This document shows, in pieces, positions 100 to 34,392 of a DNA stretch of 43,118 nucleotides. A program made the position numbers and the translations under genes. Origin of the DNA: a virus. Position 1 is the first letter of the stretch. Each line of letters begins with the position of its first letter. Location: IMG/VR virus record IMGVR_UViG_3300045988_069349. One strand, 5' to 3'. The notes below the pieces were generated by a model. It saw only the letters and a list, made by a program, of their open reading frames with translations. It was not told the origin of the DNA and searched no databases.

Positions 100-375
100 G
101 CGGTCGCCCTCACAATAGACGCTCTTTTGATTGTAAAAGTCCCGCGTATCATCCATCACGCGCCCCCGGAAGATGATGTCGCCGTCTTCTTCCACGGTTA
201 TGATGGATTTCAGCTTTTTGATGCTGTTATAGAGCAGATTTCCCGGCGGCATGACGAAGGACAGCGAACCCGCGCCGTTCACATCCAGCTTCAGCTTGGG
301 CGTGAGAATGTCCGTTCCCGCGCTGTCCGCATTATCCGCCCAGAGCAGCGCACCGTCCACGTATATCTTGTACAT
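1..375 (-). CDS. Tail tip protein Tal-1 (prophage tail endopeptidase-like N-terminal domain), N-terminal segment; continues across the circular junction into 41625..43019
   Basis: Manual reverse translation from ATG 375..373 gives MYKIYVDGALLWADNADSAGTDILTPKLKLDVNGAGSLSFVMPPGNLLYNSIKKLKSIITVEEDGDIIFRGRVMDD...SFLLDSLKKPYSYNGNVQAFF. This joins the ORF 41625..43112 in frame through the overlap. It is homologous to the Tal-2 N-terminus. Its start overlaps the Dit-1 stop (ATGA). Confidence 0.85.
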   Translation of the reverse strand, partial: MYKIYVDGALLWADNADSAGTDILTPKLKLDVNGAGSLSFVMPPGNLLYNSIKKLKSIITVEEDGDIIFRGRVMDDTRDFYNQKSVYCEGDRSFLLDSLKKPYSYNGNVQAFFRELVSGHNGQVD

Positions 376-797
376 CACAACCGCCTCCCCGTGCCGAAGC
401 GCTCCCGCTTGTACGGTTCAACCTCTGCTGTGATGGTCAGCGTCGCGGCCTTCTTGTCTGCTTCCAAGTCGCCCACAGTGACGCGCCCTTCGTAGTAATA
501 ATTCGCGTCGTCGTCAAGCGTGATCTTGAGCCGCTTTCCATGCAACGCCGCGAGAATTGCCGAATAGGTGATAGGCCAGCGCTCCCGCTCATCAATCATC
601 AGAAATTCAAAGCTCATCTGGCGCAGTTCATAGTGAACAGCGCCCGTCAGGCTTTCCGTCAGGTCAATCACCCTGTCAGAGCCGGGAACCTGAATCAATT
701 TTGTTTTCGGGGTCGGAGGACTGATGACAGGGCGGCTTTTGAGCACAAGCCCCCAATCCCGATAGGAATGTTTTTCTCCGAAAATCACGCCCATCAT
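375..797 (-). CDS. Distal tail protein (Dit)-like, short form (N-terminal belt domain only), Dit-1
   Basis: ORF track 375..803. ATG 797 lies 8 nt after GGAGG (rc of 806-810). MMGVIFGEKHSYRDWGLVL...LHGKRLKITLDDD..YYEGRV parallels Dit-2 MKGIRFGNLHTYDDLNLIL...LHGKKLKIILDDE..YYVGRL. The protein ends right after EPYK, where Dit-2 continues for ~85 more aa. Confidence 0.65.
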   Translation of the reverse strand: MMGVIFGEKHSYRDWGLVLKSRPVISPPTPKTKLIQVPGSDRVIDLTESLTGAVHYELRQMSFEFLMIDERERWPITYSAILAALHGKRLKITLDDDANYYYEGRVTVGDLEADKKAATLTITAEVEPYKRERFGTGRRL

Positions 798-799
798 GG

Positions 800-2971
800 T
801 CAATTCCTCCTTCCTTTGCGTCCGCTGATGGTGCCGAGCTGCTCGTCCATGCGCGGCGCAAGCTGGCCAACCAGTACGCCGGAATCAAGGACGATTTGCT
901 GGCCGCCGCGCGTATTGGCGACCATCTGCTGCATCAGGCCGGAAAGAGCATTGATGGCCGTTTCAAGCCGCCCGACCTCCGCGCTGCCCATTGTGCCGCT
1001 TCTCCATGCGTCAGCGTTCGCCCGGTTGAGCACCGTTTCGCCGTAATGCAGCCGCGCCAGATAGCCATCGCGTGGAACGAAATCAAGGCCGTTGGCGTGT
1101 CCCGGAATTGATCTTCCGCCGCCTGTTCCCGTGGAGGAACCGCCGCCGAACGAATGGCTGACATTGGCGTTGATATTGAAAATTCCCGCAATGCTGCTCT
1201 TTACGCCGTTCCACCACGATGTGATGCCATCTGCGACTTCCGAAGCAGAAGGCAGTTTTACTTCAAATATGGATTTGAAAATGTCGCCCACCGTTTTCAG
1301 CACATCGTCCCACCATGCTTTGATATTGGCAGCAACCGTTCCGAAGTCTTGAAGTTCAATACCAAACGGTGCTTTGATAAAGCCCTGAATGGCTGGAAGG
1401 GCTTCATCTTCCCACCATTGCGCGGCTCTCAGCGCAAGATCATTCCAGTCAGGCAAATCAATTCCGAAGGTTGCCTTGAAATAATTCTGTATTTCCGGCC
1501 AGATCACATCATTCCAGCCGTTAGCGATTTTTGTAGCAAGATCGCTCCAATACGGAAGATTGAGTTCAAAAATCGCCTTGAAGAAATCGTGAATGGCTGG
1601 CCATATCACATTATTCCATCCATCAGAAATCTTTTGCGTCAAATCCGTCCAGCTCGGCAATTCAATTCCGAAGACTGTTTTGAAGAAATTCTGAATAGCT
1701 GGCCAAATAACGGTATTCCATCCTGTCGAGATATCCGTGGCAATTTGGCTCCAGTCAGGCAAATCAACGCCGAATATCGCCTTGAAATAGCCCTGAATCA
1801 GCGGCCAAACCACGCTTTGCCACGCCGTACTGATGGCATTAGCAACCGCCGAAAGGATGGAAGGAATATCATCAACCAGTTTCGATAGTGCCCCACGGAT
1901 TGCTTTGTTGAGATTGACGAACAGATTTCCGATGCTCTGCCCGATATTTTTGAAAAAATCACCATTGCCAACGGACAAGTTTTTAAGATAGGACACGATG
2001 TCCGTTCCCATTTTCTTGAACGCTTGCGGCAACGCCTTGAGGTTCAACCCGTCTTCAGTGAATACGTCCTTAAAATACCCGGCAACTTTATCAAGGCCGT
2101 TGGAAAATCCCGTCATAAAAGCCTCAGTCTTTTCCGTCAGCCCCGGCATGATCTTGTTCAGCGTCCGCATTGCCGGAAGAATGAGCTTTTCCAGAATGGG
2201 CTTGCCGATAACACCTTTAAGCTGGCGCATGTGCTCATTCAGGTTTGCAAGGACGTTTGCATATTCCCCGGATTCTTTCGCCGCCTGCCCCGTTGCGCCG
2301 GATTGCGCCATCATATCCTTGGCGTATTGCAAGCGCGTCGCCTGTTTGGTTGCTTCATCCAGTGCCGACCATGCCTTTGTTTCCGAAACGATGCCTTTTT
2401 TAACGGCATAGGCCGCCATCTGCGTATCGTTGGCAAACAGACCGATTGCCTCGCCGCCTTCATAGCTGCCGTTGATGAAGCTGTTCAAGTGGGACATAGA
2501 TTCATCAAGCGATTTGTCCCAGAAGGCCGACGCATCCGCAGCAATCGTCAAGCCCTCTTGTGCAAGGTTGGTCGCCTCATCCACGCCATAGCCCAAGCCC
2601 TTGAATTTCGCCGTCATGCTGGTCATGTAAGGCGTGAGTCGAGAAGATACCATGCCCGTCTCGCTGGCGACCTTATCCATCTTCTCCTGCGCCATATAGG
2701 CGTAGTCGCCCATAATCTGCTCAAAAGATGCCTGTTCCGCCGCGATGCTGGCGTAGGTTTCAGCACAATCTTTTCCAAAGTCCTTGATTTTGTCCACGGC
2801 AAAGGCCGCCACAACCGCCGTACCGACTTTCTTGGCCAGACCTCCAATTTTGCCGAAAGCGGCCTCCATCGTATTCGATAGGCCGCTCGCTTTGTTTCCC
2901 GTGTCAGATATCGCCTTATTTGCTTTTGCGTTGTCGATTGCAATGGTGCCGAAAAGTTCAAAAATGTTCAT
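800..2971 (-). CDS. Tail tape measure protein, second copy (TMP-2)
   Basis: ORF 800..2980. The likely ATG at 2971 is preceded by GGCGGTGAAGCCT, the same SD context as the portal start. The N-terminus NIFELFGTIAIDNAKANKAI...FGKIGGLAKKVG parallels TMP-1. There are 34-aa W/F repeats. The C-terminus IVLDSGVLVGQLAPRMDEQLG is typical of TMP ends. Confidence 0.8.
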   Translation of the reverse strand: MNIFELFGTIAIDNAKANKAISDTGNKASGLSNTMEAAFGKIGGLAKKVGTAVVAAFAVDKIKDFGKDCAETYASIAAEQASFEQIMGDYAYMAQEKMDKVASETGMVSSRLTPYMTSMTAKFKGLGYGVDEATNLAQEGLTIAADASAFWDKSLDESMSHLNSFINGSYEGGEAIGLFANDTQMAAYAVKKGIVSETKAWSALDEATKQATRLQYAKDMMAQSGATGQAAKESGEYANVLANLNEHMRQLKGVIGKPILEKLILPAMRTLNKIMPGLTEKTEAFMTGFSNGLDKVAGYFKDVFTEDGLNLKALPQAFKKMGTDIVSYLKNLSVGNGDFFKNIGQSIGNLFVNLNKAIRGALSKLVDDIPSILSAVANAISTAWQSVVWPLIQGYFKAIFGVDLPDWSQIATDISTGWNTVIWPAIQNFFKTVFGIELPSWTDLTQKISDGWNNVIWPAIHDFFKAIFELNLPYWSDLATKIANGWNDVIWPEIQNYFKATFGIDLPDWNDLALRAAQWWEDEALPAIQGFIKAPFGIELQDFGTVAANIKAWWDDVLKTVGDIFKSIFEVKLPSASEVADGITSWWNGVKSSIAGIFNINANVSHSFGGGSSTGTGGGRSIPGHANGLDFVPRDGYLARLHYGETVLNRANADAWRSGTMGSAEVGRLETAINALSGLMQQMVANTRGGQQIVLDSGVLVGQLAPRMDEQLGTISGRKGRRN
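1175..1864 (-). repeat. About 6.5 tandem 34-aa (102-nt) coding repeats inside TMP-2
   Basis: LPDWSQIATDISTGWNTVIWPAIQNFFKTVFGIE / LPSWTDLTQKISDGWNNVIWPAIHDFFKAIFELN / LPYWSDLATKIANGWNDVIWPEIQNYFKATFGID / LPDWNDLALRAAQWWEDEALPAIQGFIKAPFGIE, and further copies. Confidence 0.85.
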
Positions 2972-3004
2972 AGGCTTCACCGCCCATCTTCCATAAAAAA
3001 GTTA

Positions 3005-4744
3005 TTATCGTGTGTTTCCCCTCATCGTGTGCGTCAGCCTGTCGTTCATGCCCGCGTCAAGCAGGGGCAGAAGCTCGCCGACCAGCGCACCATTGGATAG
3101 CCTCACATCCTTCGGCATGATGCGCCGGAGAAAGTCCATCAGCAGCCCGTTTTGCTCAATGAGCGTTCGGATGATGGCCTCGTTATCCTGCCGCACCGCT
3201 TCCCGGATGTAGGTTTGCAGCGTGTCGATAGGGGCAATAGCTTCTTTTCCGGCCTCTCCGCCGCCGAGCAGCGTGTCGCCCGTCATGCCGAAAATGGTGG
3301 GCTTGTCAAGGATGCCGCCCTCGGCGTTCCACTTCACATTAAAATTCGGCAGCTTTCCCTTGCCAGCGATTCCGAAAGGTGCTTTTCCTCCGCTGACGGA
3401 AATCTTTGGAATTTTCAGGTTGCTGAAGATTTTCCCGACCTTCAGCGGGAAAAAGCCCTTGATTTTGTCAATCACGCTTTTCACTTTTTCCCGCGCATCG
3501 TCCATCTTGTCGGTGATGGCGCTTTTGATCTTCCCGAAGGAATCCTGAACGGTTTTCACCGCGCCTTTCAGATCGTTGAATTTGCTCTTAATCCACTTGG
3601 TGGCCGAACCACATGCAGATTTGATTTTATCCCACATCGAAATCCAGAAATTTCGGAAACCCTCGTTGTTTTTCCACAGGTACAGAAAACCAGCCACAAG
3701 AGCCGCAATCAGCGTGATGATAATGCCGATGACGTTGGCCTTCATGGCGACGTTCAGCGCCTTCATGGCCACGGTGACGAGCTTGATGGCCGCCGATGCT
3801 TTCTTCATCGCGCTGGAAAAACCCATCACGGCCACAAAGCCAGAAACCGCGACCGTCGCCGCGACAATGCCCGCCTTCATAATGTCCACCGTCGTCTTGT
3901 TCTCCTTCATCCATTTGCGCATGTCCTTGATTTTGCGGATGAAGGATTCGAGCTTTGGGACGGCAGCCTCAACCATGCCCGCAACCGCGTTTTTAACGGC
4001 TGTCAGGATAGGTTCACCCACGCGCCCAAGCTCGGCCATTGCGCCGTTGAGCCTTTCCTGTGCCCGGTTTGCATCCATCACGTCCTTGTTGGTCTGCTTG
4101 TACTGGTCGGATGCGCTCTTATAGGTATTGTTCAGCGTCTCCATGATGAGCTTCTGGCGTTCCTGCTCGGTGGAGCACTTGGCCAGCTTGTCGTTAAATT
4201 CATCCTCGGATATGCCCGCCCAGTTCAGCGCATCCGCGAGCGGTCCGGTCACTTCGCCGACCTTGGCCGTTTCGTTCGCCGCTTCCGTCAGCCCCTCAAT
4301 AGGGAGTGAATCGCCGAACGTCGCAAAAACGCCCGTACAGATATCCGTCCACGTCTGCAAATCCTTTTCGTTGTCCGTCATCACAGCCAGATGGTTCGCA
4401 GCCTCAACGGAAACGTCCGTTTCGCCGAGCACGGCTTGTAAATCCTGATAGGTTTTTTTCGCCGCGTCAGAGGAATGGCCGTTGGTTACGAAGGCCGTGT
4501 CCAGCTTGCCCATTTCCGTCCGATATTCCCGGCTGCCCTCAATGGCCGCAATCCACGCTGTTCCCAGCGTCACGCCCGCAGCGACAACGGCCTTTCCGAC
4601 CTTCAGCGCTGCGCCGCCAATCTTTGAGAAGGCGGATTCCGACTTTTTCCCAGCGCCGTCCGCTTTGGCCGTCGTTTCCTCCAGCGCCCGATTGGCCTGT
4701 TCGTTGTCAATCGCGATTGTCCCCAGAATCTTGAATAGCTCCAC
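3005..4744 (-). CDS. Tail tape measure protein, first copy (TMP-1)
   Basis: ORF 3005..4768. The probable GTG start at 4744 follows GGGGGTG. The N-terminus is ELFKILGTIAIDNEQANRAL...FSKIGGAALKVG. There is a TP901-type core (FGDSLPIEGLTEAANETAKVG), a hydrophobic TM block (IIITLIAALVAGFLYLW) and a C-terminus GGEAGKEAIAPI...ALVGELLPLLDAGMNDRL. Confidence 0.85.
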   Translation of the reverse strand: MELFKILGTIAIDNEQANRALEETTAKADGAGKKSESAFSKIGGAALKVGKAVVAAGVTLGTAWIAAIEGSREYRTEMGKLDTAFVTNGHSSDAAKKTYQDLQAVLGETDVSVEAANHLAVMTDNEKDLQTWTDICTGVFATFGDSLPIEGLTEAANETAKVGEVTGPLADALNWAGISEDEFNDKLAKCSTEQERQKLIMETLNNTYKSASDQYKQTNKDVMDANRAQERLNGAMAELGRVGEPILTAVKNAVAGMVEAAVPKLESFIRKIKDMRKWMKENKTTVDIMKAGIVAATVAVSGFVAVMGFSSAMKKASAAIKLVTVAMKALNVAMKANVIGIIITLIAALVAGFLYLWKNNEGFRNFWISMWDKIKSACGSATKWIKSKFNDLKGAVKTVQDSFGKIKSAITDKMDDAREKVKSVIDKIKGFFPLKVGKIFSNLKIPKISVSGGKAPFGIAGKGKLPNFNVKWNAEGGILDKPTIFGMTGDTLLGGGEAGKEAIAPIDTLQTYIREAVRQDNEAIIRTLIEQNGLLMDFLRRIMPKDVRLSNGALVGELLPLLDAGMNDRLTHTMRGNTR

Positions 4745-5087
4745 CTCTTGCACCCCCAGAAGGGTCAAAGCCCGTCAGCATGTTATACGATTGCGAGACG
4801 GTGCTCTTGATTTCTTCCTGCGTTGGTGCTGCTTTCGCGTCCGATTTGACAGACGCACGGAAATCTGCATAGGACTGGTCGAAAACCCGATGCAGCCAAA
4901 TCTTCCAGAGCGTTTCATCTTCCTGCTCTTTGTTGTATAGGCCGACAAATTCATTGACAAATTCCTCCAGCCGCCCGCCCCGTATCATCCCATCAAGCAG
5001 GGTGAGAGGGGAGGCATAGCGCCGGAAAATCAGGTCAAAGAATTGCACGTCGTTTATTTCAACAATCCGAGCACATCCGCGAAAAAA
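4707..5087 (-). CDS. Tail assembly chaperone gpT-like -1 frame extension (made as a G-T fusion by programmed frameshift)
   Basis: The -1 frame relative to the gpG-like ORF is open from exactly the slippery site (upstream TGA at 5090..5088) down to 4707. It reads FFRGCARIVEINDVQFFDLIFRRYASPLTLLDGMIRGG... . It sits in the canonical position between gpG and the TMP. Confidence 0.7.
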   Translation of the reverse strand, partial: FFRGCARIVEINDVQFFDLIFRRYASPLTLLDGMIRGGRLEEFVNEFVGLYNKEQEDETLWKIWLHRVFDQSYADFRASVKSDAKAAPTQEEIKSTVSQSYNMLTGFDPSGGARGGAIQDSGDNRD

Positions 5088-5461
5088 TCAGGGAACTCCT
5101 TTTTCCTGATGGTGTCCTTGACCATCGCCATGAACACGTGAGACGGAAGCGCGGCGATTTCATCCGCCTTCATGCCGGAGAGCGCCGCAAGCAGGGCATA
5201 GATTTCGGCTTTGCAATCCGGCAGATGGTCGATAATCACGCCCGCGACTTCCAGCATCACGGCCACGCCGACGCTCGCCATCTCGTTTTCTTCCGCCTTC
5301 TTCCCCTCGCCGTCCTGCATCGCGGCCTTGATAGCCTCACGCACCTCCGGCGTGGCAAAGCAGTTTTTCATTTCCTTGATGCCGATTTTGCGGATGACGT
5401 TGACGACCAGAAAGATATCGTCCGCAGTCAAATCGCGCAGCGTATACTCAACGTTTTCCAT
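5054..5461 (-). CDS. Tail assembly chaperone gpG-like
   Basis: 135-aa acidic ORF between the major tail gene and the TMP. It ends ...KEFPDFFADVLGLLK, with the slippery heptamer 8 codons before its stop. Confidence 0.75.
   Translation of the reverse strand: MENVEYTLRDLTADDIFLVVNVIRKIGIKEMKNCFATPEVREAIKAAMQDGEGKKAEENEMASVGVAVMLEVAGVIIDHLPDCKAEIYALLAALSGMKADEIAALPSHVFMAMVKDTIRKKEFPDFFADVLGLLK
5081..5087 (-). promoter_or_regulatory. Programmed -1 ribosomal frameshift slippery heptamer T_TTT_TTC
   Basis: The reverse complement of gaaaaaa (5081-5087) is TTTTTTC, read in the zero frame as GAT TTT TTC (D F F). This fits the X_XXY_YYZ pattern. Confidence 0.75.
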
Positions 5462-5479: not shown

Positions 5480-5511
5480 TAAAAATCGGGCAGGGAAGCA
5501 GCCCCCGCCCG
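5480..5511 (-). terminator. Intrinsic terminator/attenuator after the major tail protein gene
   Basis: Minus-strand RNA CGGGCGGGG-gcugcuu-CCCUGCCCG (9 bp, one G.U) followed by AUUUUUAU. It lies 13 nt after the stop at 5524. Confidence 0.6.
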
Positions 5512-5523
5512 GTTGGTTTCTGA

Positions 5524-6099
5524 TTAGGTTGCCTTGGGATAGTAGATGTGCCACGGCAGCGTTTCAAGGTCGCCGGAAAGCTCGGCATAGCACTCAAAGG
5601 TAAATTTGCCGACCGCGCCTTCCTTGTTTTTGCTCTCCGGCTCAAGACCGCTCGTGCAGAGCGCATTGTCGAGGATGGCGATGATCGGCTCGCCGTCAAG
5701 CGTTGCGCCGACAAAGGCGATGTTTTCCCAATAGTCGCCCTCCACGATGTCGGCCTTGCTCTCGATGAGATCATACTTTGTATCGGCAGACGTTCCAGCA
5801 TTGCCCAGCGTCGCCGCCGTGATGACCTCCTTGGACAGCTCCAGCAGATTGACCTCCATTGTGGCCGTTTCGCCCGTCTTCTTGTTCAGTCCCTTGGCGG
5901 AGACAAACACGCCGTCGGCCTCGACCTTCGTGATTTCCGGCACGATGGAGAGCTTGCTGCCGCCGCTCGTCGCGCCGATGATGCTCGCGTCAAAGTTCCA
6001 CTTGTCGCCCTCGTACTTCAGACCCTTGTGAATCGTGCCAGCACCGAAGAGGATATTCTTGGGCGTGTTTGCCGACACGCCATTGATACCCGTTTTCAT
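5524..6099 (-). CDS. Major tail (tube) protein
   Basis: 191 aa, MKTGINGVSANTPKNILFGAGTIHKGLKY...; beta-rich. Positioned between the tail-completion genes and the G/GT chaperones. Confidence 0.75.
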   Translation of the reverse strand: MKTGINGVSANTPKNILFGAGTIHKGLKYEGDKWNFDASIIGATSGGSKLSIVPEITKVEADGVFVSAKGLNKKTGETATMEVNLLELSKEVITAATLGNAGTSADTKYDLIESKADIVEGDYWENIAFVGATLDGEPIIAILDNALCTSGLEPESKNKEGAVGKFTFECYAELSGDLETLPWHIYYPKAT

Positions 6100-7327: not shown

Positions 7328-7869
7328 ACGCGCACCCCCTGACCGAATCGCGCCTTCATGTAGGGCTTTAGGAAGCCCAGCAGCGCCTTCGGAAATCCGG
7401 CAATGGAATTGTCGCCGGACATATCGAAATAAGACACAGAGTGCCGGGAGATGGTTTCAGAGCTGATACCCACCTTTTCCCGGTTATTCAGTTCCCATTT
7501 CATCATGTTGACCACGCCCATCTTGATATCGGCGGGATAGATGACGCGCGTCACGCGGACATCCTTTTCATCGTAGGTCTTTTCTTTGAGCGTGACGGTT
7601 GCGTCATCCGCTGCCGTGACCGTATAGAGGCCGTCGTTCAGCTCGGAATCGCTGATTTGCAGCGTGTCGCCGACATCAAAGGGTTGGAGCGCCTCCATGT
7701 AGAGAAAACCGCCCACAACGTCAGCCTCGCGCCGCGCCGCCCGCTGCTGGAAATTGTTGTTCGTATAAGCGCGAATCAACAGCTCCATCGCCCGCAGCTT
7801 TTCTTCCAGCACGTCGTCGGTTTCGTCGGTTTCGATGTGCTTTCGCAGTGCCTCGACCGTCAGAATCAT
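7324..7869 (-). CDS. Head-tail connector (gp6-like DNA-packaging/connector protein)
   Basis: MILTVEALRKHIETDETDDVLEEKLRAMELLIRAYTNNNF is a typical N-terminus for this family. Synteny after the capsid gene supports it. Confidence 0.55.
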   Translation of the reverse strand: MILTVEALRKHIETDETDDVLEEKLRAMELLIRAYTNNNFQQRAARREADVVGGFLYMEALQPFDVGDTLQISDSELNDGLYTVTAADDATVTLKEKTYDEKDVRVTRVIYPADIKMGVVNMMKWELNNREKVGISSETISRHSVSYFDMSGDNSIAGFPKALLGFLKPYMKARFGQGVRV

Positions 7870-8234
7870 TCCATCACGCCCTTAATCGCTTCGAGGATTT
7901 CCGCCTTTTTCTTGGCTTCACCGAGATCAAGGCCACGCTGCTCGGCAAATTCACGCAGCTCGGCGACCGTCAGCTCTTCCAATTTGGTTTCGTGGGCTTG
8001 CTGCTCATCCTGCTGCTCATCCTGCTGCTCGTCCTGTACCGCCGCGATGCTGTCAAGCCGTCCGGCGCATTTCGCCTTGACGGACAGCTCGGAAAACGTA
8101 AAAAAGGGAGAAGGGACGGAGAGCTGAACCTCCGCCCCAACCGTAAAGCCCTTTTCGTCCCAGCGCACCGTGTAGGTTTTGCCGTCGTCGGCGTACAGGT
8201 AAGGCAGCCCATCCACAATCACAAATCTGTTCAT
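7866..8234 (-). CDS. Capsid-module protein with a C-terminal HeH/SAP (Rho-N-like) motif
   Basis: C-terminus LTVAELREFAEQRGLDLGEAKKKAEILEAIKG. There is an internal (QDEQ)3 acidic repeat. Confidence 0.5.
   Translation of the reverse strand: MNRFVIVDGLPYLYADDGKTYTVRWDEKGFTVGAEVQLSVPSPFFTFSELSVKAKCAGRLDSIAAVQDEQQDEQQDEQQAHETKLEELTVAELREFAEQRGLDLGEAKKKAEILEAIKGVME
7999..8034 (-). repeat. 12-nt x3 tandem repeat encoding (QDEQ)3
   Basis: tgctgctcatcc tgctgctcatcc tgctgctcgtcc. Confidence 0.9.
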
Positions 8235-10063: not shown

Positions 10064-10834
10064 TTATGCCTTTTTCGGGATTTTGATGGTTTGCCCAGCG
10101 AGAATCTTGTCGCTCTGCATGCCGTTGAGCTGCTTGATCTCTTTGTATCGGTTGCCCCTGCCAAGCATCTTTTGAGCGATGCGCCAAAGCGTGTCGCCCT
10201 TCTTCACGGTGTAGAGCGTATAATCCGCGCTTTCTTCGGGTTCTTTGGGTTGTTCCTGTTTCGGCTCTGCCGCTGTCTGTACGCCATACGCCGGACGGCC
10301 ATAGCCACAGATTCGACCGTGGGAGAGGGGATAGCTCTTTTTGAAAACTCCGCCGCCGTTTGCGACCACGCCGCTCGCGCCGGATGTATTGCCTTCGACC
10401 GTATAGACGCGGCTGCCATCTACCTTGTAGACAAGGCCAGTATGGGTTTCGCTTCCGTAAGTGCCAAAGAAGATTTGGTCTCCAACCTGTGGGGAATGGA
10501 AGAACTGTCCCTTTTGCTCGTAGTATTTACGGCTCCACTTGACACCAGCGCCCGCGTTGTTCTTGCTCACCGTCGGCTGGAAGGTCATCTTCAGCGCCGC
10601 CAGCTTGCCGTATGCCTGTACAAAGCACCAGTCCACAAACACGTCGCACCATGCCACACCCTGTTTTCGGCCATTGTAGAAGCTGATAGCATCAAGGTCG
10701 CGCGCATATTTGGTGATATTCGCATCTCCGGCGTTGGCCGTCTTATCGTCCAGCGCGTTTTTGCTGGCCTTTTCCAGATAGCCGACCTCCGCGAGGGCGA
10801 TATTCAGCACCTTTTGTCGGTCATACATCTTCAT
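10064..10834 (-). CDS. Endolysin: N-terminal CHAP-type amidase/peptidase plus C-terminal LysM
   Basis: Start MKMYDRQKVLNIALAEVGYLEK. Catalytic-type blocks GVAWCDVFVDWCF and HTGLVYKVDGSRVYTVEGNTS. P/E/Q-rich linker. LysM YTVKKGDTLWRIAQKML...LNGMQSDKILAGQTIKIP. Confidence 0.8.
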   Translation of the reverse strand: MKMYDRQKVLNIALAEVGYLEKASKNALDDKTANAGDANITKYARDLDAISFYNGRKQGVAWCDVFVDWCFVQAYGKLAALKMTFQPTVSKNNAGAGVKWSRKYYEQKGQFFHSPQVGDQIFFGTYGSETHTGLVYKVDGSRVYTVEGNTSGASGVVANGGGVFKKSYPLSHGRICGYGRPAYGVQTAAEPKQEQPKEPEESADYTLYTVKKGDTLWRIAQKMLGRGNRYKEIKQLNGMQSDKILAGQTIKIPKKA

Positions 10835-11078
10835 CCGCCCCTTCGTCGAGCGTGTCCAGCTCTTCCGGCGTTTCCTTGTCGTCCTTGCACTCCGGCAGTC
10901 CGGCAACGGAGGTCAGCAGGGAAAGCACGCCCGCCAGCGCCGCAGAGGACGCGACAAGCGCCCAATTCACGTCTCCCATAGCGGCAGACGAGCCGATGGT
11001 TGCGATGGCCGCCTGCGCCACCGTCTTGATGGCACGGATTCCGGCAGCCTTAAACCAAACTTTGAAGCAGGGTTTCAT
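10821..11078 (-). CDS. Holin (LL-H/phi-LC3-like)
   Basis: 85 aa; IRAIKTVAQAAIATIGSSA plus a second hydrophobic helix ALVASSAALAGVLSLLTSVAG and an acidic C-terminal tail. SD AAGGAG lies 8 nt upstream. It overlaps the lysin start. Confidence 0.7.
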   Translation of the reverse strand: MKPCFKVWFKAAGIRAIKTVAQAAIATIGSSAAMGDVNWALVASSAALAGVLSLLTSVAGLPECKDDKETPEELDTLDEGADEDV

Positions 11079-12818: not shown

Positions 12819-14327
12819 TTATGCCTCCAATTCTGCCGTAAGTTCGGCGTACAGGTCATTGATGGTCTTTTCGGCTTTTCTCACGTTGCATTTGTAAGTT
12901 GCTTCCAGCCCCGCACCATCCGTGGCTTGCAAGACGGTCGTCGGCGCGTAGGTAGTCAGTGATTTGTATGCGGCGATTTCAGCCGGGGTGAGCGGGGTCT
13001 CGACGGGGGTGGCGAGACAGTAAAAGATAAAGGATTTCACATTCGTTAGTAACTGCTTAAAGGCTTCAAGCGATGAATACTCAGAACTTGGCGGGAAACT
13101 AACAGTGATTTCCTGATTGTTGGCGTATATCTTCGGGAGGTTCTGAATGTTGTCATTCCAGGTAACATTCTTAAAAGGTAGTATGTTGCAAATAGACGGA
13201 AAAGAATTTTTACTAGCATCTTCACCATATACACGCGTTTGAAAATTGTTGTTTCCGCTGGCTAACTTTTGATACGCCCACTTGTCATCAGGGCTTAACT
13301 CTTTCACTTTCACCCTCTGCACTCGTACCCCTCTCTCCAAGTCCACCTCATCGCACACCCACTGCTGGCCGCTTTGGTCAGTGTAGTTGCCGCCGGAGGT
13401 GACGGGGATGCCGGGTAAACCATTGGGAGTAGAGAGCGTGAGGAGCTGTTCACGGTAGGGTTCATAAGATGTAGCTTTTGAACCCATTTCCAGCTGGACA
13501 TCATATACTTTATCTCCCGCAACGGTGTCATATAAAATAAAACCTACGTTTTCCACATCTCTTTTGGGAACAAAATTAACAAAACCAATATTTGCAAGTA
13601 TAATGTTGTTGATTTCACCATTCGTGTATTTTAAACATACAAATTTATTTCTTGAACTACTGGCTGTGGTTTTTAATGAAAATGTGTAAGTATTACCCGC
13701 TTTTAAACGCAACGGTCTAGCACCAACAGAAGTAGGGTCTATGTCTATTTGCATAGTAGATGCTGTTGCTATATATGTTCCTTCTTTTTGCTCGACGTTT
13801 CCTACTGATAATGTTTTAAAATTATCCCATAAATTTCTACCTGATACTTTCACCGTCACATTTCCGCCGTCACCAGCGCTCACGATAGGCACAGGCGCAT
13901 CCGGCGTGGGCGTGCCGTCCTGCGTACTCTTGCCGTAGACGTGTAACGCTTTTAGTGCCTTCCCACCGATGCAGTTCTCCAGTATGAGGGGATTTCCGGA
14001 AAGCGTCACATCCTCGCCGGATGCAGCCTCGAAAAGAATCTTATCCTCTCTTGTGATGGGTTCGGGCAGTTCGTCATCCCATACGCCCGCCATTGCCGCC
14101 ACGTACTTTTCAAGGCGCGTGTTGGGCTTTGGCGGCACGATGGACTTATCGCGCACGGATGCAATCAGCTTTTCGAGGGTCGTGTGCAGCTCTGGTCGGG
14201 TGTCCAGATGTCCGCACGCATAGCAGCAGCATTTTTCCAAATTTCTCAACGGTTCCGGCATATCTGCCGAGCTATCCGCCAGCACCCGCAGAAATCTTTG
14301 TAATCTTGTAATCGGTTCAATGCTCAT
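12819..14327 (-). CDS. Fibre/receptor-binding-like structural protein (lectin/jelly-roll-like repeats), located in the head module
   Basis: 502 aa. N-terminal repeated P.(T/N)RLEK motifs; TLSGNPLILENCIGGKALKALHVYGKSTQDGTPTPDAPVPI; QLEMGSKATSYEPY is a fibre-type block. The centre is AT-rich. Confidence 0.5.
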   Translation of the reverse strand: MSIEPITRLQRFLRVLADSSADMPEPLRNLEKCCCYACGHLDTRPELHTTLEKLIASVRDKSIVPPKPNTRLEKYVAAMAGVWDDELPEPITREDKILFEAASGEDVTLSGNPLILENCIGGKALKALHVYGKSTQDGTPTPDAPVPIVSAGDGGNVTVKVSGRNLWDNFKTLSVGNVEQKEGTYIATASTMQIDIDPTSVGARPLRLKAGNTYTFSLKTTASSSRNKFVCLKYTNGEINNIILANIGFVNFVPKRDVENVGFILYDTVAGDKVYDVQLEMGSKATSYEPYREQLLTLSTPNGLPGIPVTSGGNYTDQSGQQWVCDEVDLERGVRVQRVKVKELSPDDKWAYQKLASGNNNFQTRVYGEDASKNSFPSICNILPFKNVTWNDNIQNLPKIYANNQEITVSFPPSSEYSSLEAFKQLLTNVKSFIFYCLATPVETPLTPAEIAAYKSLTTYAPTTVLQATDGAGLEATYKCNVRKAEKTINDLYAELTAELEA

Positions 14328-29262: not shown

Positions 29263-30051
29263 TCAGCTCTTGCCAACAAACTTGTTGATGAAATAAACCT
29301 GCCCCTTGCCCGTCACCTTTGCCGTGCGGTTGATGGTGATGTGGCCGTCGGCGTGGGTGATGGTCGTTTCCTTGACCTCGAAGAGCTTCATTTCCATGCT
29401 CCGCTGGGTGGGGCTGTTATACGACGCGCCCTTCTGGCTGATGAGGTACTTGTTTTCCCGCAGCCATTGGAAAAGCCGCTTCTGGCCGATATCCACGCCG
29501 TTCTGTTTCAGCAGCTTGGCGAGGTCTCCGATGAGGATTGACGTTTTGCTCGCGCTGACCGCATCCGCGAAAAGTGCCTTCGGGTGCATGGCCTCGATTT
29601 GCTTCTCCTGCACCTCGATCTGCTTATCCCGCGCCGCAATCTTCCGCTGGGCGACCATCAAGGCGTTGGCCAGCAGCTCGTCGTCCGTCATGGTTTCCTG
29701 CCCGACGATGTAGCCGCCATTTTTGCGGATGCTGGGGATAACTTCGTGGGTAATCCAGCGCTTGAAGGCTTTCGCCTCCGGCTTCCGGCTGCCGAGTACC
29801 AAACTGTAAAGCCCCGGTTCATTGATAATGGAAACTTGGTCATTGCCTCTGCTGATGCCCTTAATTGAAATAAGGGCTTTTTCATCATCATCAAGGCGAC
29901 GGATTGTATTTGTCACCTGTCCGAGGTCAAGCGCTCTGCATACGTCAGCCGCCACAAACCACGGCTGGCCTTCCTTTGCAACCGTCCGCACCTGCCCAAA
30001 CTGGGCATTTTCAAAAACCTGCAATCCTTCCAAACTGTTCGCCTCCTGCAT
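29263..30051 (-). CDS. Antirepressor (BRO-N plus KilAC/ANT domains)
   Basis: LQVFENAQFGQVRTVAKEGQPWFVAADVCRALDL (BRO-N). C-terminal LIGDLAKLLKQNGVDIGQKRLFQWLRENKYL (KilAC). ATG 30051 lacks an SD. TTG at 30033 after GGAGG is an alternative start. Confidence 0.8.
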   Translation of the reverse strand: MQEANSLEGLQVFENAQFGQVRTVAKEGQPWFVAADVCRALDLGQVTNTIRRLDDDEKALISIKGISRGNDQVSIINEPGLYSLVLGSRKPEAKAFKRWITHEVIPSIRKNGGYIVGQETMTDDELLANALMVAQRKIAARDKQIEVQEKQIEAMHPKALFADAVSASKTSILIGDLAKLLKQNGVDIGQKRLFQWLRENKYLISQKGASYNSPTQRSMEMKLFEVKETTITHADGHITINRTAKVTGKGQVYFINKFVGKS

Positions 30052-30052
30052 T

Positions 30053-30067
30053 TTGCTTAAAGCACAA
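30053..30067. promoter_or_regulatory. Switch operator copy (between the cro-like and antirepressor genes)
   Basis: TTGCTTAAAGCACAA, a reverse-oriented near copy of TGTGCTTTAAGCACA. Confidence 0.45.
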
Positions 30068-30262
30068 TCAGTGTCTAAAAAAAATTAGATCGTTCACCGT
30101 GCAGCCATACAGGTCAGCGATGCGCTTGGACATCTCAATATCAGGCTTTGTCTTGTAATTTTCATAATTGGACAAGGTATTTCGATTGATATTGAGCGCC
30201 TTTGCCGCATCAGCCATTGTCATCTCGGCATTTACCCGAGCGGCTTTCAAAGTTACTTCCAT
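30068..30262 (-). CDS. Cro-like XRE-family HTH regulator
   Basis: MEVTLKAARVNAEMTMADAAKALNINRNTLSNYENYKTKPDIEMSKRIADLYGCTVNDLIF. SD AAGGAG lies 9 nt upstream of ATG 30262. The ORF-track start 30307 lies upstream of the predicted transcription start. Confidence 0.75.
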   Translation of the reverse strand: MEVTLKAARVNAEMTMADAAKALNINRNTLSNYENYKTKPDIEMSKRIADLYGCTVNDLIFFRH

Positions 30263-30287
30263 TTCTCTCATCTCCTTTTTGTGATTC

Positions 30288-30302
30288 TGTGCTTTAAGCA
30301 CA
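30288..30302. promoter_or_regulatory. Switch operator, best copy TGTGC-N5-GCACA
   Basis: TGTGCTTTAAGCACA, just downstream of the -10 of the leftward promoter. Confidence 0.6.
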
Positions 30303-30307
30303 ATCAC

Positions 30308-30336
30308 ATAATACTATTCTGAAATAATTTTGTCAA
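30308..30336 (-). promoter_or_regulatory. Early lytic promoter (cro-like operon)
   Basis: On the minus strand: TTGACA (rc 30331-30336), 17 nt, TATTAT (rc 30308-30313). Confidence 0.7.
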
Positions 30337-30338
30337 TA

Positions 30339-30349
30339 CTTTAAGCACA
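30339..30349. promoter_or_regulatory. Switch operator half/degenerate copy
   Basis: CTTTAAGCACA, with a degenerate left half. Confidence 0.4.
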
Positions 30350-30367
30350 ACTTTTTCGGCTTTTTTA

Positions 30368-30395
30368 TTGCTTTATTGTGCTTTAGGTGTATAAT
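30368..30395 (+). promoter_or_regulatory. Repressor-gene promoter
   Basis: TTGCTT (30368-30373), 16 nt, TATAAT (30390-30395). Confidence 0.65.
30376..30390. promoter_or_regulatory. Switch operator copy overlapping the repressor promoter
   Basis: TTGTGCTTTAGGTGT, with a degenerate right half. Confidence 0.45.
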
Positions 30396-30417
30396 ATTAG
30401 GTGAAGGAGGTGAACAC

Positions 30418-30774
30418 ATGGATAACAAAGACGTTTTCGCCCGAAATTTGAGAGAGTATATGCAGATCAAAAAAAAGAGCCGCCGGGAGGTATGCGACGA
30501 TCTCGGTTTCAGCTATTACACGTTTTCGGACTGGGTGAACGGGAAGAAATATCCGAGGATGGACAAGGTGGAAATGCTCGCCAATTATTTCGGAATCCAG
30601 AAATCCGACCTGATAGAAGAAAAGCCGCCGGAAGAGCAGCAAAAAAAGCCCGACGCAGACGAGGGGCTTTCCGACAATATGCGTGAGCTTATGGATTTTG
30701 TGCGGACTGTCCCGGAAGACAAGGCGGCGATGATTCTATCAGTAATTCGGACAATCGTGGAATCTGGAAAATAA
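30418..30774 (+). CDS. CI-like XRE-family repressor (no S24 peptidase domain)
   Basis: ATG 30418 after GAAGGAGG. MDNKDVFARNLREYMQIKKKSRREVCDDLGFSYYTFSDWVNGKKYPRMDKVEMLANYFGIQKSDLIEEK, followed by a short C-terminal helix domain. Confidence 0.75.
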   Translation: MDNKDVFARNLREYMQIKKKSRREVCDDLGFSYYTFSDWVNGKKYPRMDKVEMLANYFGIQKSDLIEEKPPEEQQKKPDADEGLSDNMRELMDFVRTVPEDKAAMILSVIRTIVESGK

Positions 30775-30878
30775 CCTTTTCCACCTGTTCGGGGGTTAGG
30801 GTTTGTATGTAAGATATAAGCTGGTCAATAGCGCTCATTTTGGGCTTGCCCCTTTCCGCTTGATTTTAGATAAAAAAT

Positions 30879-30907
30879 ATGATACACGCATAATTTTTGT
30901 CTTGCAA
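30879..30907 (-). promoter_or_regulatory. Candidate promoter firing toward the 3' end of the repressor gene
   Basis: On the minus strand: TTGCAA (30902-30907), 17 nt, TATCAT (rc 30879-30884). Confidence 0.4.
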
Positions 30908-30947
30908 TACGATTTCCTACATTCGTAATTTTCAGTTTTTGGGAAAA

Positions 30948-30990
30948 ATGCGGGAGCGCAGCAGCACCACCCGAACGCCCCCGCATTTCT
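30948..30990. terminator. Hairpin, possible bidirectional terminator downstream of the repressor gene
   Basis: ATGCGGGAGCG-17 nt-CGCCCCCGCAT (one A/C mismatch), with AAAAA on the 5' side and TTTCT on the 3' side. Confidence 0.4.
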
Positions 30991-31179
30991 GGAAGATAGG
31001 CCGTTTCGACCCTGATTCAAGCCTATCACCATACGCGGATAATCGCAACGAGCAAAGGCGATGTATTCACATCGTATGTGATTTTTTATACCCAGTCATA
31101 AAAATGTATACGAATCGAATATGATGTAACGGGAAGAATTGCACATGAAAGGACGGGTTTACAGAAAGAAGGCTTTGCC

Positions 31180-31803
31180 GTGTACTCGAAATGTCTGAAT
31201 TGCCAAAACCCCGGCAGGGAATGTCTCAAACGTTTGCTGACCATGACAGGCGACGAGCTGCTGATCTGGTGCAAGGCCAGAAAGAAGAGCCTCGGCTTAT
31301 CCAATGCGGATATCGCCGCCGCAACGAATGTGCCGAAAGGCACGGTTGACAGGCTGCTTTCGTCCTCCGGGTCGGATGTCCGCTTCTCAACCATCCAGCC
31401 CATTATCCGCCTGCTCTCCGGCTGCACGGACGCGGAGCTTGATTGTTCCCCATCGCCGGAGGCAGACGACGCGCTGACCATACACGCCCACGACCTCGAA
31501 ACCGAGGTTAAGCACGAGAAGGACATCACGCGACGGCTCGAAGAATCCATTGCCGCGTGGAGGCGTGTTTCACAGTGCCTCATTGCGCTTTGCGTGCTTC
31601 TGGTTGTGGCGCTGATGTTTTACATCGCCATGGATGCCAGCAACGAAGACATTGGCCTCATCAGAGGCAGCAGCGTTTCGCCCTTGGCGATGTTGCTTTG
31701 CGTTTTCGCGCTGGCCTCCACCGCCGCCCTGATTATCTTGCAGGGCAGATTGATAGATAGTAAGAAGGAGAAACCGATAAACGACAAAAGGGATGAATCG
31801 TAA
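31180..31803 (+). CDS. Membrane-anchored XRE-type HTH protein
   Basis: GTG start after AGAAAGAAGG. LSNADIAAATNVPKGTVDRLLS is the HTH. A coiled segment follows. Two hydrophobic helices: CLIALCVLLVVALMFYIAM and PLAMLLCVFALASTAALIILQG. The stop abuts the int ATG. Confidence 0.6.
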   Translation: MYSKCLNCQNPGRECLKRLLTMTGDELLIWCKARKKSLGLSNADIAAATNVPKGTVDRLLSSSGSDVRFSTIQPIIRLLSGCTDAELDCSPSPEADDALTIHAHDLETEVKHEKDITRRLEESIAAWRRVSQCLIALCVLLVVALMFYIAMDASNEDIGLIRGSSVSPLAMLLCVFALASTAALIILQGRLIDSKKEKPINDKRDES

Positions 31804-33237: not shown

Positions 33238-33241
33238 CCTC

Positions 33242-33291
33242 TGTTTGTGGTTAATTCTAGCACCGAACGGCGCAAGAATTAACTACAAGCA
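33242..33291. promoter_or_regulatory. Candidate attP core (50-bp imperfect palindrome)
   Basis: tgtttgtggttaattct-N16-agaattaactacaagca. The arms match at 15/17 positions as an inverted repeat. It starts 5 nt after the int stop. Confidence 0.5.
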
Positions 33292-33299
33292 AAAATAGA

Positions 33300-33330
33300 G
33301 GCGTGCATCCATTGGGTGCGCGTCTTTTTT
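33300..33330 (+). terminator. Intrinsic terminator after int/attP
   Basis: GGCGUGCA-uccauuggg-UGCGCGUC (8 bp, 2 G.U) followed by TTTTTT. Confidence 0.65.
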
Positions 33331-33357
33331 ACATTTTCGTCATAATTGCCGATTCTA

Positions 33358-33388
33358 TTGACAATCATTTGGATTTGTGCAATATAAA
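33358..33388 (+). promoter_or_regulatory. Promoter of the AT-rich moron
   Basis: TTGACA (33358-33363), 17-19 nt spacer, AATATAAA (TG at 33378-33379 gives an extended -10-like context). Confidence 0.6.
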
Positions 33389-33420
33389 GATATCAAATCT
33401 TGTGTGAAGGTGGTCTTAAT

Positions 33421-34101: not shown

Positions 34102-34106
34102 AAAAT

Positions 34107-34136
34107 AAGGCCGAGGCAAACGCCCCGGCCTTTTCT
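34107..34136. terminator. Bidirectional terminator between the moron and the end of the tail operon
   Basis: AAGGCCG-aggcaaacgccc-CGGCCTT flanked by AAAAA and TTTT. Confidence 0.7.
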
Positions 34137-34137
34137 C

Positions 34138-34365
34138 TTATCCCTGTTGGTGGATATCTTCCCGCAATTCATCAATTCGGATGAACGCTTTTTCCACGTC
34201 TTTTTCCAGCTTATACGTCCGCTCAACAACGGAATTGTGCTTTTCAACCTTCTTTTCAAGCTGCTCCATTCGGTAGGATAGCAGGGCGGTCGTTTTGCTG
34301 TTTGAAAAATAACTGCCCATCAAAGTCCCTGCCAAAGAGATAACCGCAACAATGATCGTGTCCAT
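34138..34365 (-). CDS. Small membrane-anchored coiled-coil protein (last gene of the tail operon)
   Basis: MDTIIVAVISLAGTLMGSYF is the TM helix, followed by LSYRMEQLEKKVEKHNSVVERTYKLEKDVEKAFIRIDELRED. SD GGAAGAAGG is upstream. Confidence 0.55.
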   Translation of the reverse strand: MDTIIVAVISLAGTLMGSYFSNSKTTALLSYRMEQLEKKVEKHNSVVERTYKLEKDVEKAFIRIDELREDIHQQG

Positions 34366-34392
34366 AGGTCTTGACCTTCTTCCAGATTTTTG

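Follow-up and report, generated by a model that had tools for sequence, protein, structure and literature searches.

Two tape measure genes and two tail-tip sets beside a single tail-tube gene in a gut siphophage lineage

The window, by which we mean the whole 43,118-nt stretch of DNA analysed, is the circular genome (43,019 bp; bases 1–99 are identical to bases 43020–43118) of a temperate siphophage from the gut, in which one tail-tube gene stands beside two complete tape measure protein (TMP) genes and two complete Dit–Tal tip sets. We propose that these constitute two parallel tail-initiation modules, served by one set of head, tube, G/GT chaperone and neck genes, and that they yield tails of two lengths and two specificities. 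There are no particle data, and we regard the proposal as evenly balanced between right and wrong. Two tail types are the reading that we favour; sequence cannot decide between two tail lengths and one TMP that is not a ruler. The wider inference, that a widespread temperate siphophage lineage of gut Clostridia always builds two tails, with the B module as a plug-in cassette bringing its own tape measure and with host-range bet-hedging that needs no genetic switch, is tentative and falls somewhat short of that balance. The hosts belong to uncultured or rarely cultured Oscillospiraceae or Acutalibacteraceae.

Module A comprises TMP-1 (TMP-A), Dit-2, Tal-2, a 135-aa protein and a DUF859 protein. 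Module B comprises TMP-2 (TMP-B), Dit-1, Tal-1 and three further proteins, and forms a cassette inserted between TMP-1 and Dit-2. The tube gene occurs once in the structural region that was scanned, and the head and neck genes are present in one copy each. The genes and signals upstream of the TMP genes are as follows.

5524–6099, minus strand: major tail (tube) protein (phrog_885, E = 1.5e-55)
5487–5511, minus strand: terminator-like hairpin directly 3′ of the tube gene (10-bp stem with 8 GC pairs, then a T tract)
5054–5461, minus strand: tail assembly chaperone G, 3′ of the tube gene and 5′ of the TMP genes (phrog_1021, E = 5e-26)
4707–5089, minus strand: chaperone T extension (GT) in the −1 frame, from sequence and translation (phrog_1294)

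The slippery heptamer of GT, T_TTT_TTC, lies at about 5083–5089. TMP-1 directly follows the G/GT pair, and the T frame overlaps its start; TMP-2 is placed after TMP-1 and not after the chaperone, and in sister phages its orthologue type directly follows G/T. No terminator was found between modules A and B in the window, and the genes of both are predicted to be co-transcribed as one operon. A megablast search of the genome against cultured phages gave no match, and the sole close INPHARED record is an unannotated faecal contig.

An earlier note on this DNA had described two full-length TMP genes in tandem, and we confirm both. They lie head to tail on the minus strand, with likely products of 579 and 723 aa.

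3005–4744, minus strand: TMP-1, 579 aa (PHROG matches, N motif, class I C-terminal end)
2972–3004, minus strand: TMP-1/TMP-2 spacer (second TAA, T run, then the SD, GGCGGTGA)
800–2971, minus strand: TMP-2, 723 aa (PHROG matches, N motif, class I C-terminal end)
1213–1822, minus strand: six 34-aa repeats inside TMP-2, aa 387–590 in 726-aa numbering (W/F about 11 residues apart)

The TMP-1 reading frame is open over 3005–4768 (587 aa counted from a TTG), but its likely start is the GTG at 4744, which has GGGGGTG 5′ of it and gives a product beginning MELFKILGTIAIDN; the resulting 579 aa is the length of nearly all TMP-1 orthologues. Similarly, the TMP-2 frame (800–2980) would encode 726 aa from the GTG at 2980, and the likely start is the ATG at 2971 with GGCGGTGA upstream, from which the 723 aa agrees with public TMP-2 gene calls. 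The 24-nt separation with an SD that had been reported is correct up to this GTG and becomes 33 nt up to the ATG. TMP-1 ends in TAA TAA, and no terminator hairpin was found in the spacer of the window. The two open reading frames are in the same frame, a relation absent from the earlier note and not conserved among relatives.

Both proteins match several PHROG families annotated as ‘tail length tape measure protein’ (TMP-1: phrog_58, 1.4e-31, phrog_991 and others; TMP-2: phrog_1535, 9e-22, and phrog_58, 1.2e-19), and both match annotated TMPs of cultured phages by tblastn; neither reached the cutoff of any Pfam or NCBIfam model. Pairwise BLASTP returned a single significant match (residues 6–64 of TMP-1 with 1–59 of TMP-2, 53% identity, E = 1e-13), which bears out the N-terminal signature that the two had been said to share; the same motif begins the sole TMPs of phiFL4A, TPWB-10, L213 and L365. 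The typical TMP C-terminal ends attributed to them are also present, as the motif ..LD(S/T)G(A/V)LVG..P..D..LG.., which many sole TMPs possess. These first 59 aa and this short motif are all that the pair has in common. Calling them complete paralogues, as the earlier note did, is thus apt for two complete and separate genes but not for their full length: paralogy seems limited to the ends, and the bodies are best described as mosaics of different TMP lineages, with parts of one phiFL4A-type TMP spread over TMP-1 and TMP-2. The within-genome similarity of TMP-A and TMP-B N-termini gave no evidence of gene conversion or co-adaptation (0.360 versus 0.354, p = 0.12).

TMP-1 consists of the N motif, a core domain (aa 77–283), two hydrophobic helices (approximately aa 299–364 in 587-aa numbering; Kyte–Doolittle 2.07 and 2.71), a C domain and the class I end. 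TMP-2 consists of the N motif, a phiFL4A-like N domain, the 34-aa W/F repeats and the class I end, and it has no hydrophobic helix above a Kyte–Doolittle value of 1.7. A hydrophobic segment is also frequently missing from the sole TMPs of sister phages and is therefore not universal in TMPs. Each TMP-2 repeat follows a pattern of about 11+12+11 residues, and the TMP-2 proteins of close relatives, at 689 and 655 aa, are shorter by exactly one or two 34-aa units; such a change of length by whole repeats would be ruler-like behaviour. No tandem repeats were found at the DNA level in the TMP genes, the repetition being visible in the protein only. Solved structures gave only weak local matches, to 80alpha gp57 (in the hydrophobic region) and to the C. 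difficile tape measure protein CD1366, entry 8v3w (in the C-terminal motif).

Because the two frames coincide in the window, with only TAA TAA and 10 sense codons between them, and because most close relatives have a single TAA, read-through could in principle give one TMP of about 1,310 aa, or the separation could be an artefact of assembly or sequencing. We consider either version very improbable. An identical stop, spacing and start recur at the junction in 10 other contigs from separate assemblies, which excludes a sequencing error at 2981–3004, one of the two findings that the earlier note had named as refuting its reading. Of 50 distinct short spacers, no more than 24 leave the two genes in frame and just 9 contain a single stop, and a further 21 spacers contain antisense ORFs (with signal peptides) or an HNH gene. 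Downstream of TMP-A, a terminator hairpin is present in 39 of the 49 distinct short spacers of relatives, which suggests unequal dosage of TMP-A and tip A. TMP-2 also possesses an SD of its own and the complete N-terminal motif. A single TMP split by a frameshift, which the earlier note had already dismissed, is likewise rejected: each reading frame has its own N- and C-terminal motifs, about 100 diverged relatives carry the pair, some with intervening genes or hairpins, and dN/dS in the two genes is 0.03–0.13.

The two tip sets continue on the minus strand across the circular junction, which the Tal-1 gene crosses because bases 1–99 repeat bases 43020–43118.

375–803, minus strand: Dit-1, a 142-aa ‘mini-Dit’ (phrog_33, E = 1.7e-14)
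100–375, minus strand: N-terminal part of Tal-1 (the gene spans the circular junction)
41625–43118, minus strand: remainder of Tal-1, 589 aa in all (phrog_3558, E = 2e-77)
41196–41483, minus strand: 96-aa protein of the B cassette (found again 3′ of Tal-B in relatives)
39792–41189, minus strand: 465-aa protein of the B cassette (phrog_19280)
39396–39749, minus strand: 117-aa protein, last gene of the B cassette
38529–39173, minus strand: Dit-2 (Dit-A), 214 aa (phrog_33, E = 4e-12)
36865–38532, minus strand: Tal-2 (Tal-A), 555 aa (phrog_3558, E = 3e-134; PF06605)
36445–36852, minus strand: 135-aa protein of the A tip set
34393–36432, minus strand: DUF859 tail protein, 679 aa (phrog_372, E = 2e-107; PF05895)
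34107–34132, minus strand: strong terminator at the end of the late operon (11-bp stem with 8 GC pairs, then a T tract)

Both Dit genes hold the expected place between a TMP and a Tal gene, and both Tal genes follow a Dit gene. Dit-1, which overlaps both the TMP-2 stop and the Tal-1 start, corresponds to the ring domain only, without the C-terminal (galectin-type) domain; TIGR01633 covers it over the whole profile (E = 4e-4, below cutoff). Dit-2 is conserved throughout the lineage (60–67% identity in relatives). Tal-2 scores 51 bits against PF06605 (Prophage_tail; cutoff 31), and precomputed calls place PF06605 in Tal-1 orthologues. In the B cassette, the 96-aa protein has no PHROG match and the 465-aa protein, which varies between close relatives (82–91% identity, versus 97–100% for its neighbours), is likely to be a fibre or receptor-binding protein. 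The DUF859 protein is the likely receptor-binding protein of tip A.

The dual arrangement defines a whole lineage and is not peculiar to the window genome. The order tube, G/GT, TMP-A, TMP-B with its own tip, and then tip A recurs in about 100 non-redundant contigs of uncultured gut phages. A second TMP lies directly 3′ of nearly all TMP-A genes (about 95 non-redundant loci), and at the few exceptions TMP-B is split or has been assigned a wrong start; wherever the sequence extends far enough, the B cassette is followed by tip A. Two loci that seemed to hold two TMPs and a B tip without an A tip proved to be artefacts of locus or contig ends, with tip A just beyond. The short Dit-1 and the division of TMP-B into two frames at two loci might be taken to mean that one module is a decaying, functionless leftover of a recent recombination between two phages, but we find this barely credible. 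Estimates of dN/dS lie far below 1 for all six genes, indicating purifying selection (TMP-1, 0.03–0.045; TMP-2, 0.11–0.13; Dit-1, 0–0.04; Tal-1, 0.16–0.25; Dit-2, 0.12–0.22; Tal-2, 0.06), the dual state persists down to 41–55% TMP-A identity in both human and ruminant gut samples, and mini-Dits of 139–143 aa form a conserved family with orthologues in many relatives.

TMP-B and tip B are exchanged between genomes as one unit, which supports the earlier assignment of TMP-2 to tip set 1 (Dit-1 and Tal-1). Sister phages that share these tube, G and T genes have a ‘TMP(712)-Dit(233)-Tal’ module as their sole tail module, and its TMP has 84% identity with a TMP-B from a dual genome. Enterococcus phage phiFL4A and TPWB-10 likewise each have a TMP-2-like protein as their sole TMP. 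Conversely, tip A is the only tip at three loci, and a TMP-A-like protein of 578 aa is the sole TMP of a distant phage, L365.

The C-terminal class of TMP-B always fits the tip that follows it: there are 32 loci that pair class I with a PF06605-type tip and 25 that pair class II with the other type of tip, with no cross cases. TMP-A is of class I, matching tip A, at 67 of 77 loci. From this pairing it follows that in at least 25 genomes only TMP-A has a class that fits tip A. Moreover, the two TMPs of L366 are paralogous (46% identity over 536 aa) and differ in their last 40 or so residues, in step with its two tips. In the window itself both TMPs are of class I, and cross-docking therefore cannot be excluded. 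The N- and C-terminal motifs that the pair share, together with the predicted co-transcription, would also be compatible with a mixed oligomer of both TMPs in every tail and a single composite tip built from both tip sets. This seems improbable to us, as TMP-A and TMP-B lengths are unrelated across genomes (579 aa versus 411–1207 aa), so that both ends could not be anchored in one tail, at least 25 genomes have two C-termini that differ in class, and each tip set works alone in sister phages. Furthermore, the tube end of siphophage tips is closed by a Tal trimer, which leaves no obvious site for a second Dit–Tal complex.

A more serious contender, although still unlikely in our judgement, is that TMP-A is a TMP-derived accessory that is not a ruler and travels with tip A, the second TMP setting a single tail length. 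TMP-A would be loaded into tails or ejected through them, and its two hydrophobic helices could form a membrane channel. Two strongly hydrophobic helices are found in all TMP-A proteins (121 of 121) and not in the TMP-2 of the window, and the sole TMPs of phiFL4A and TPWB-10 have a TMP-1-like hydrophobic region and C domain, both of which TMP-2 lacks; the first hydrophobic region of the TP901-1 TMP is needed for infectivity (PMC5099701). Several further observations fit an accessory and count against two tails. The length of TMP-A is nearly constant (565–605 aa in most loci), and TMP-A was never found as the only TMP within the lineage, although loss of the B cassette would take one deletion. 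Two diverged genomes (L320/L338 and L332) have TMP-A with a regular TMP of 938–942 aa and, in the sequence examined, only one tip (tip A), and two TMPs are therefore retained even without two tips. The frequent hairpin after TMP-A, with the different dosage that it suggests, and the class I ends of both window TMPs weigh in the same direction, the latter against two tails only.

Set against the accessory reading, a TMP-A-like protein does serve as the sole TMP of L365, and TMP-A keeps the full N- and C-terminal assembly motifs of a ruler. Hydrophobic segments are no rarer in TMP-B than in the sole TMPs of single-TMP sister phages (17% versus 18%, p = 0.36), and a general division of labour by hydrophobic helices is unsupported. 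Without the docking of TMP-A, tip A would have no class-matching TMP in at least 25 genomes, and phages that combine an A-like tip with just one TMP manage without TMP-A. In favour of two tails, TMP-A covaries less strongly with its neighbours G (r = 0.57) and tube (0.49) than with the genes of tip A at a distance of 4–7 kb, Dit-A (0.76) and Tal-A (0.70).

Under the favoured two-tail proposal, the C-terminus of each TMP would dock into its own Dit–Tal complex, the shared N-terminal motif would engage the common chaperone, tube and terminator, and the tube would polymerise along whichever ruler the initiator contains. Infected cells would thus yield a mixed population of virions. At 1.5 Å per residue, the A tail is estimated at about 87 nm (579 aa), with a conserved tip, and the B tail at about 108 nm (723 aa), with a variable tip. 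For an L072-type relative, whose TMP-B has 1207 aa, the two lengths expected would be about 87 and about 180 nm. The outcome would be two receptor specificities from one genome with no genetic switch. What the comparisons show is that both TMPs are intact, under selection and homologous to sole TMPs elsewhere, that each tip set can serve as the sole tip of a sister phage, and that the C-terminal end of each TMP belongs to the class found with one tip type. A large and abundant group of human and ruminant gut phages maintains two rulers and two tip complexes under selection. Entire tail tips, each accompanied by the ruler that matches it, behave as exchangeable cassettes. A single burst may hold two kinds of virion aimed at different receptors, and for such phages both the annotation pipelines and the prediction of host range are incomplete. 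The system also provides a naturally occurring test of tip selection by the TMP C-terminus, L366 being close to a natural domain swap, and bears on how tail length is set where one tube protein is contested by two rulers.

Textbooks present the tape measure as the example of a single protein that sets a single length, and the tail modules of siphophages are taken to contain TMP, Dit and Tal once each. Like the canonical modules of lambda (gpG/GT–gpH) and TP901-1 (TMP–Dit–Tal), the window has a tube gene, G, T by a −1 frameshift, TMP, Dit, Tal and receptor-binding proteins; unlike them, it has two full TMP genes after one chaperone pair, and then two Dit–Tal sets. The nearest cultured relative of TMP-2 is found in phiFL4A (gp46–gp50), which, like TPWB-10, shares the TMP N motif and has the phrog_1294 T family directly 5′ of TMP. 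The N- and C-terminal regions of the TP901-1 TMP are needed (PMC5099701), and both window TMPs have regions that correspond to them. The work of Belcaid et al. 2011 (PMC3271669) on the evolution of TMP length by repeat units deals with single TMPs and describes no phage with two TMP genes. The W/F-marked 34-aa units of TMP-2, by whole numbers of which relatives differ, resemble those repeats. Our literature search found no published account of a second or duplicated TMP, of paired Dit proteins, or of a phage with two tail modules or two tail lengths.

Partial parallels exist for single genomes that yield more than one virion type. In Tuc2009 and TP901-1, one gene gives full-length and processed Tal, on tails that are otherwise identical and differ in infection properties. 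A title on Tuc2009/TP901-1 virions with two alternate forms of Tal is cited in PMC5099701 and PMC4493119. As in those phages, one genome would here give mixed virions with differing tail tips, but it would do so by complete alternative sets of genes, a separate ruler being part of each. The G segment of Mu and the C segment of P1 undergo site-specific DNA inversion, so that one set is expressed per cell and only the fibres change. The window likewise has two alternative host-recognition gene sets in one genome, and two virion types are proposed, but its sets lie in one operon and the duplication takes in TMP, Dit and Tal. No inverted repeats flank either module (only four weak pairs of 20–27 nt with 76–80% complementarity were found), and the recombinase at 31804–33237 is a 477-aa integrase-type serine recombinase (phrog_95); inversion of this type was rejected. 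Finally, phages of the phi92, CBA120 and K1-5 type attach every adhesin to one and the same baseplate and have one TMP or tail. Host range is broadened there, as it would be here, by more than one adhesin system, whereas in the window it is the central tip complex and the ruler themselves that are duplicated.

Bases 1–99 are identical to 43020–43118; the window is therefore a contig closed into a circle of 43,019 bp, and one gene (Tal-1) spans the junction. The minus strand carries every structural gene. The genome encodes two tape-measure proteins (TMPs) and two complete Dit–Tal tip sets, together with a single tube gene, a single chaperone pair (G and T) and a single set of neck genes in the structural region scanned.

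Late genes of the window in transcription order, and the integrase beyond them
First in order (−): head and neck genes (terminase, SPP1-type portal, MuF-like protein, endolysin, scaffold, major capsid protein, adaptors, tail completion proteins)
5524–6099 (−): tube
5054–5461 (−): G chaperone
−1 frame after G (−): T chaperone extension, slippery T_TTT_TTC
3005–4744 (−): TMP-1
800–2971 (−): TMP-2
375–803 (−): Dit-1
Across the circular junction (−): Tal-1
After Tal-1 (−): three proteins of 96, 465 and 117 aa
38529–39173 (−): Dit-2
36865–38532 (−): Tal-2
After Tal-2 (−): 135-aa protein
34393–36432 (−): DUF859 protein, then a terminator
31804–33237 (+): serine integrase, beyond the late-operon terminator

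The slippery heptamer, of the classical −1 type, lies at about 5083–5089 (−) near the end of the G gene; the T frame is open from there and shares about 38 nt with the start of TMP-1. The endolysin (10064–10906 (−), phrog_9589) does not follow the tail genes but is embedded in the head module, with the MuF-like protein on one side and the scaffold on the other. An insertion-like ORF of 502 aa separating portal from MuF (12819–14327 (−); G+C 0.44 versus about 0.55) has only a weak ‘virion structural protein’ match. A small protein between the capsid and connector genes (7866–8234 (−)) carries an acidic (QDEQ)n repeat, and its C-terminal part matches phrog_3281 (‘endonuclease VII’) and related families. 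Directly past the late-operon terminator is a lysogeny/moron region of low G+C (30000–34400; 0.38–0.47), which contains a Cro/CI-type HTH gene, the integrase and unannotated ORFs at 33400–34101 (+) and 31086–31583 (−).

The earlier note had claimed two tandem tape-measure genes with a common N-terminal signature and typical TMP C-terminal ends, and all three points hold. The stop, spacing, Shine–Dalgarno sequence (SD) and start of the junction recur identically in 10 other contigs from separate assemblies, which makes the tandem robust. The pairwise alignment that the note had proposed gives one significant match, the N-terminal signature (TMP-1 residues 6–64 versus TMP-2 1–59; 53% identity, E=1e-13). 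Both proteins match several PHROG tape-measure families and end in the motif ..LD(S/T)G(A/V)LVG..P..D..LG.., as do many TMPs that are the only tape measure of their phage (sole TMPs). The likely start of TMP-1 is GTG 4744, giving 579 aa, as in nearly all orthologues; that of TMP-2 is ATG 2971, giving 723 aa, in agreement with public gene calls. Although the two ORFs share a frame in the window, separated by TAA TAA, a read-through fusion is not conserved, because, of 50 distinct short spacers from relatives, just 24 keep the frame and just 9 have a single stop. Values of dN/dS against close relatives (TMP-1, 0.03–0.045; TMP-2, 0.11–0.13; Dit-1, ≤0.04; Tal-1, 0.16–0.25; Dit-2, 0.12–0.22; Tal-2, 0.06) indicate that all six genes are functional. 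TMP-2 contains six 34-aa W/F repeats, the number of which differs among close relatives by exactly one or two; length change by whole repeats is the behaviour described for rulers (PMC3271669).

The two-TMP arrangement is much broader than could be seen from one sequence. Viral, genome and metagenome collections were scanned with TMP-1, TMP-2, the tube protein and Tal-2 orthologues (Tal-A) as anchors, yielding several hundred loci (L numbers), the genes of which were classified with profiles built in this analysis. Of about 95 non-redundant loci that encode an orthologue of TMP-1 (TMP-A), nearly all have a second TMP (TMP-B) directly after it; in the few exceptions TMP-B is split or mis-called. 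TMP-A is mostly 565–605 aa and TMP-B 411–1207 aa, with the same N-terminal motif on both. TMP-B is followed by its own tip set (tip B), and next comes tip A, made up of the Dit-2, Tal-2 and DUF859 orthologues. Unlike the conserved TMP-A and tip A, the intervening TMP-B–tip B cassette is hypervariable, with at least two unrelated tip types. The arrangement, which persists down to 41–55% TMP-A identity in human and ruminant gut samples, defines a lineage. Bins point to Clostridia hosts (Oscillospiraceae, Acutalibacteraceae), although binning is unreliable. Two apparent exceptions without tip A proved to be artefacts of a locus or contig end.

Several features vary among these loci. TMP-B occupies two reading frames in L041 (11749–13418) and L051 (11752–13643), reflecting a frameshift or an assembly error. 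The endolysin position of the window recurs in L087 and L090; in L023 and L253 lysis genes separate the B cassette from tip A. A B-cassette fibre in L253 (7252–8802; also L076, 19414–20961) bears a GDSL/SGNH esterase domain that may modify or destroy the receptor, and the adjoining fibre has collagen repeats. Many relatives carry an antisense ORF of 150–410 aa, with a signal-peptide or lipoprotein-like start, between TMP-A and TMP-B (L021, L022, L030, L038, L042, L045, L072, L088/L089; one with Big_2). These ORFs look like morons and are possibly expressed from the prophage. The gap in L073 (12349–12990) instead holds an HNH-like endonuclease ORF.

Each module also occurs alone. Among genomes sharing the same tube, G and T genes, a tube-anchored scan, unbiased towards any TMP, recovered 24 dual genomes and 29 with a single TMP. 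Many single-TMP genomes read ‘TMP(712)-Dit(233)-Tal..’, with a TMP that shares 84% identity with TMP-B from a dual genome; in others tip A directly follows a single TMP (L198, L231, L335, L082). A distant phage (L365) has a single TMP, a 578-aa protein with the TMP-A body plan. The N-terminal domain and repeats of TMP-2 resemble those of two sole TMPs, from Enterococcus phage phiFL4A and from TPWB-10, which in their C-terminal parts resemble TMP-1; both window proteins are therefore mosaics of ordinary, self-sufficient tape measures. On this sequence evidence, each tail module can stand alone.

TMP ends also match their tips. The extreme C-termini fall into two classes: in non-redundant dual loci, class I TMP-B precedes a PF06605-type Dit/Tal (32 cases) and class II TMP-B the other tip type (25 cases), with no cross cases among them. 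The TMP-A end belongs to class I in 67 of 77 loci, agreeing with the PF06605-type tip A; thus, in at least 25 genomes only the TMP-A end suits the class of tip A. The two TMPs of L366 are paralogous (46% identity over 536 aa) and diverge in the last ~40 aa, in step with its two tip types. TMP-A distances correlate with those of Dit-A (r=0.76) and Tal-A (0.70), both beyond the variable cassette, and less with those of the adjacent G (0.57) and tube (0.49).

In siphophage tails, the TMP is bound by G/GT, docks its C-terminus in the Dit–Tal initiator and nucleates tube polymerization up to its N-terminus. Under this logic, two TMPs, each with a matching initiator, would produce two tail populations on the same heads, predicted at ~87 nm for tails bearing tip A and ~108 nm for those bearing tip B. 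The modules would be expressed together, as no strong terminator separates them in the window. Two tail populations from one genome are thus the most likely outcome, inferred rather than shown.

Some evidence does not fit, and keeps alive a rival in which TMP-A serves not as a ruler but as a channel-forming accessory protein. L320/L338 and L332, two diverged genomes that share 61% TMP-A identity, have TMP-A plus a regular 938–942-aa TMP, 42–66% identical to sole TMPs elsewhere, and only tip A. Within the lineage TMP-A is never the only TMP; its length is almost fixed, and it always has two strong hydrophobic helices, with none in TMP-2 of the window. Of 49 distinct short spacers in relatives, 39 have a canonical terminator hairpin, of varied stem, directly after the TMP-A stop. 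Against the rival, hydrophobic segments are no scarcer in TMP-B proteins than in the sole TMPs of sister phages (p=0.36).

The spacer hairpins (for example, L040, L087, L018 and L007) have a 7–9-bp GC stem and a T tract, often preceded by an A tract, with a strong TMP-B SD after them; in the window (2972–3004) and its close relatives the hairpin has disappeared. In L338 (1681–3552) and at the start of L332, both two-TMP, one-tip genomes, and of the single-TMP relative L335, the head module contains an additional receptor-binding-like DUF859 gene just before the holin/lysin genes.

The two-tail mechanism, our preferred reading, is open to a simple electron microscopy measurement. Full-text literature searches gave no description of two TMP genes in one phage. 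Functionally, the arrangement comes closest to Tuc2009/TP901-1 with its two forms of Tal, to Mu and P1 with their invertible fibre genes, and to phages with several receptor-binding proteins; in none of these are the tape measure and the central tip duplicated. Taken singly, the parts described here are ordinary TMP, Dit and Tal family members; the unusual feature is that the whole initiation module is duplicated, ruler included.
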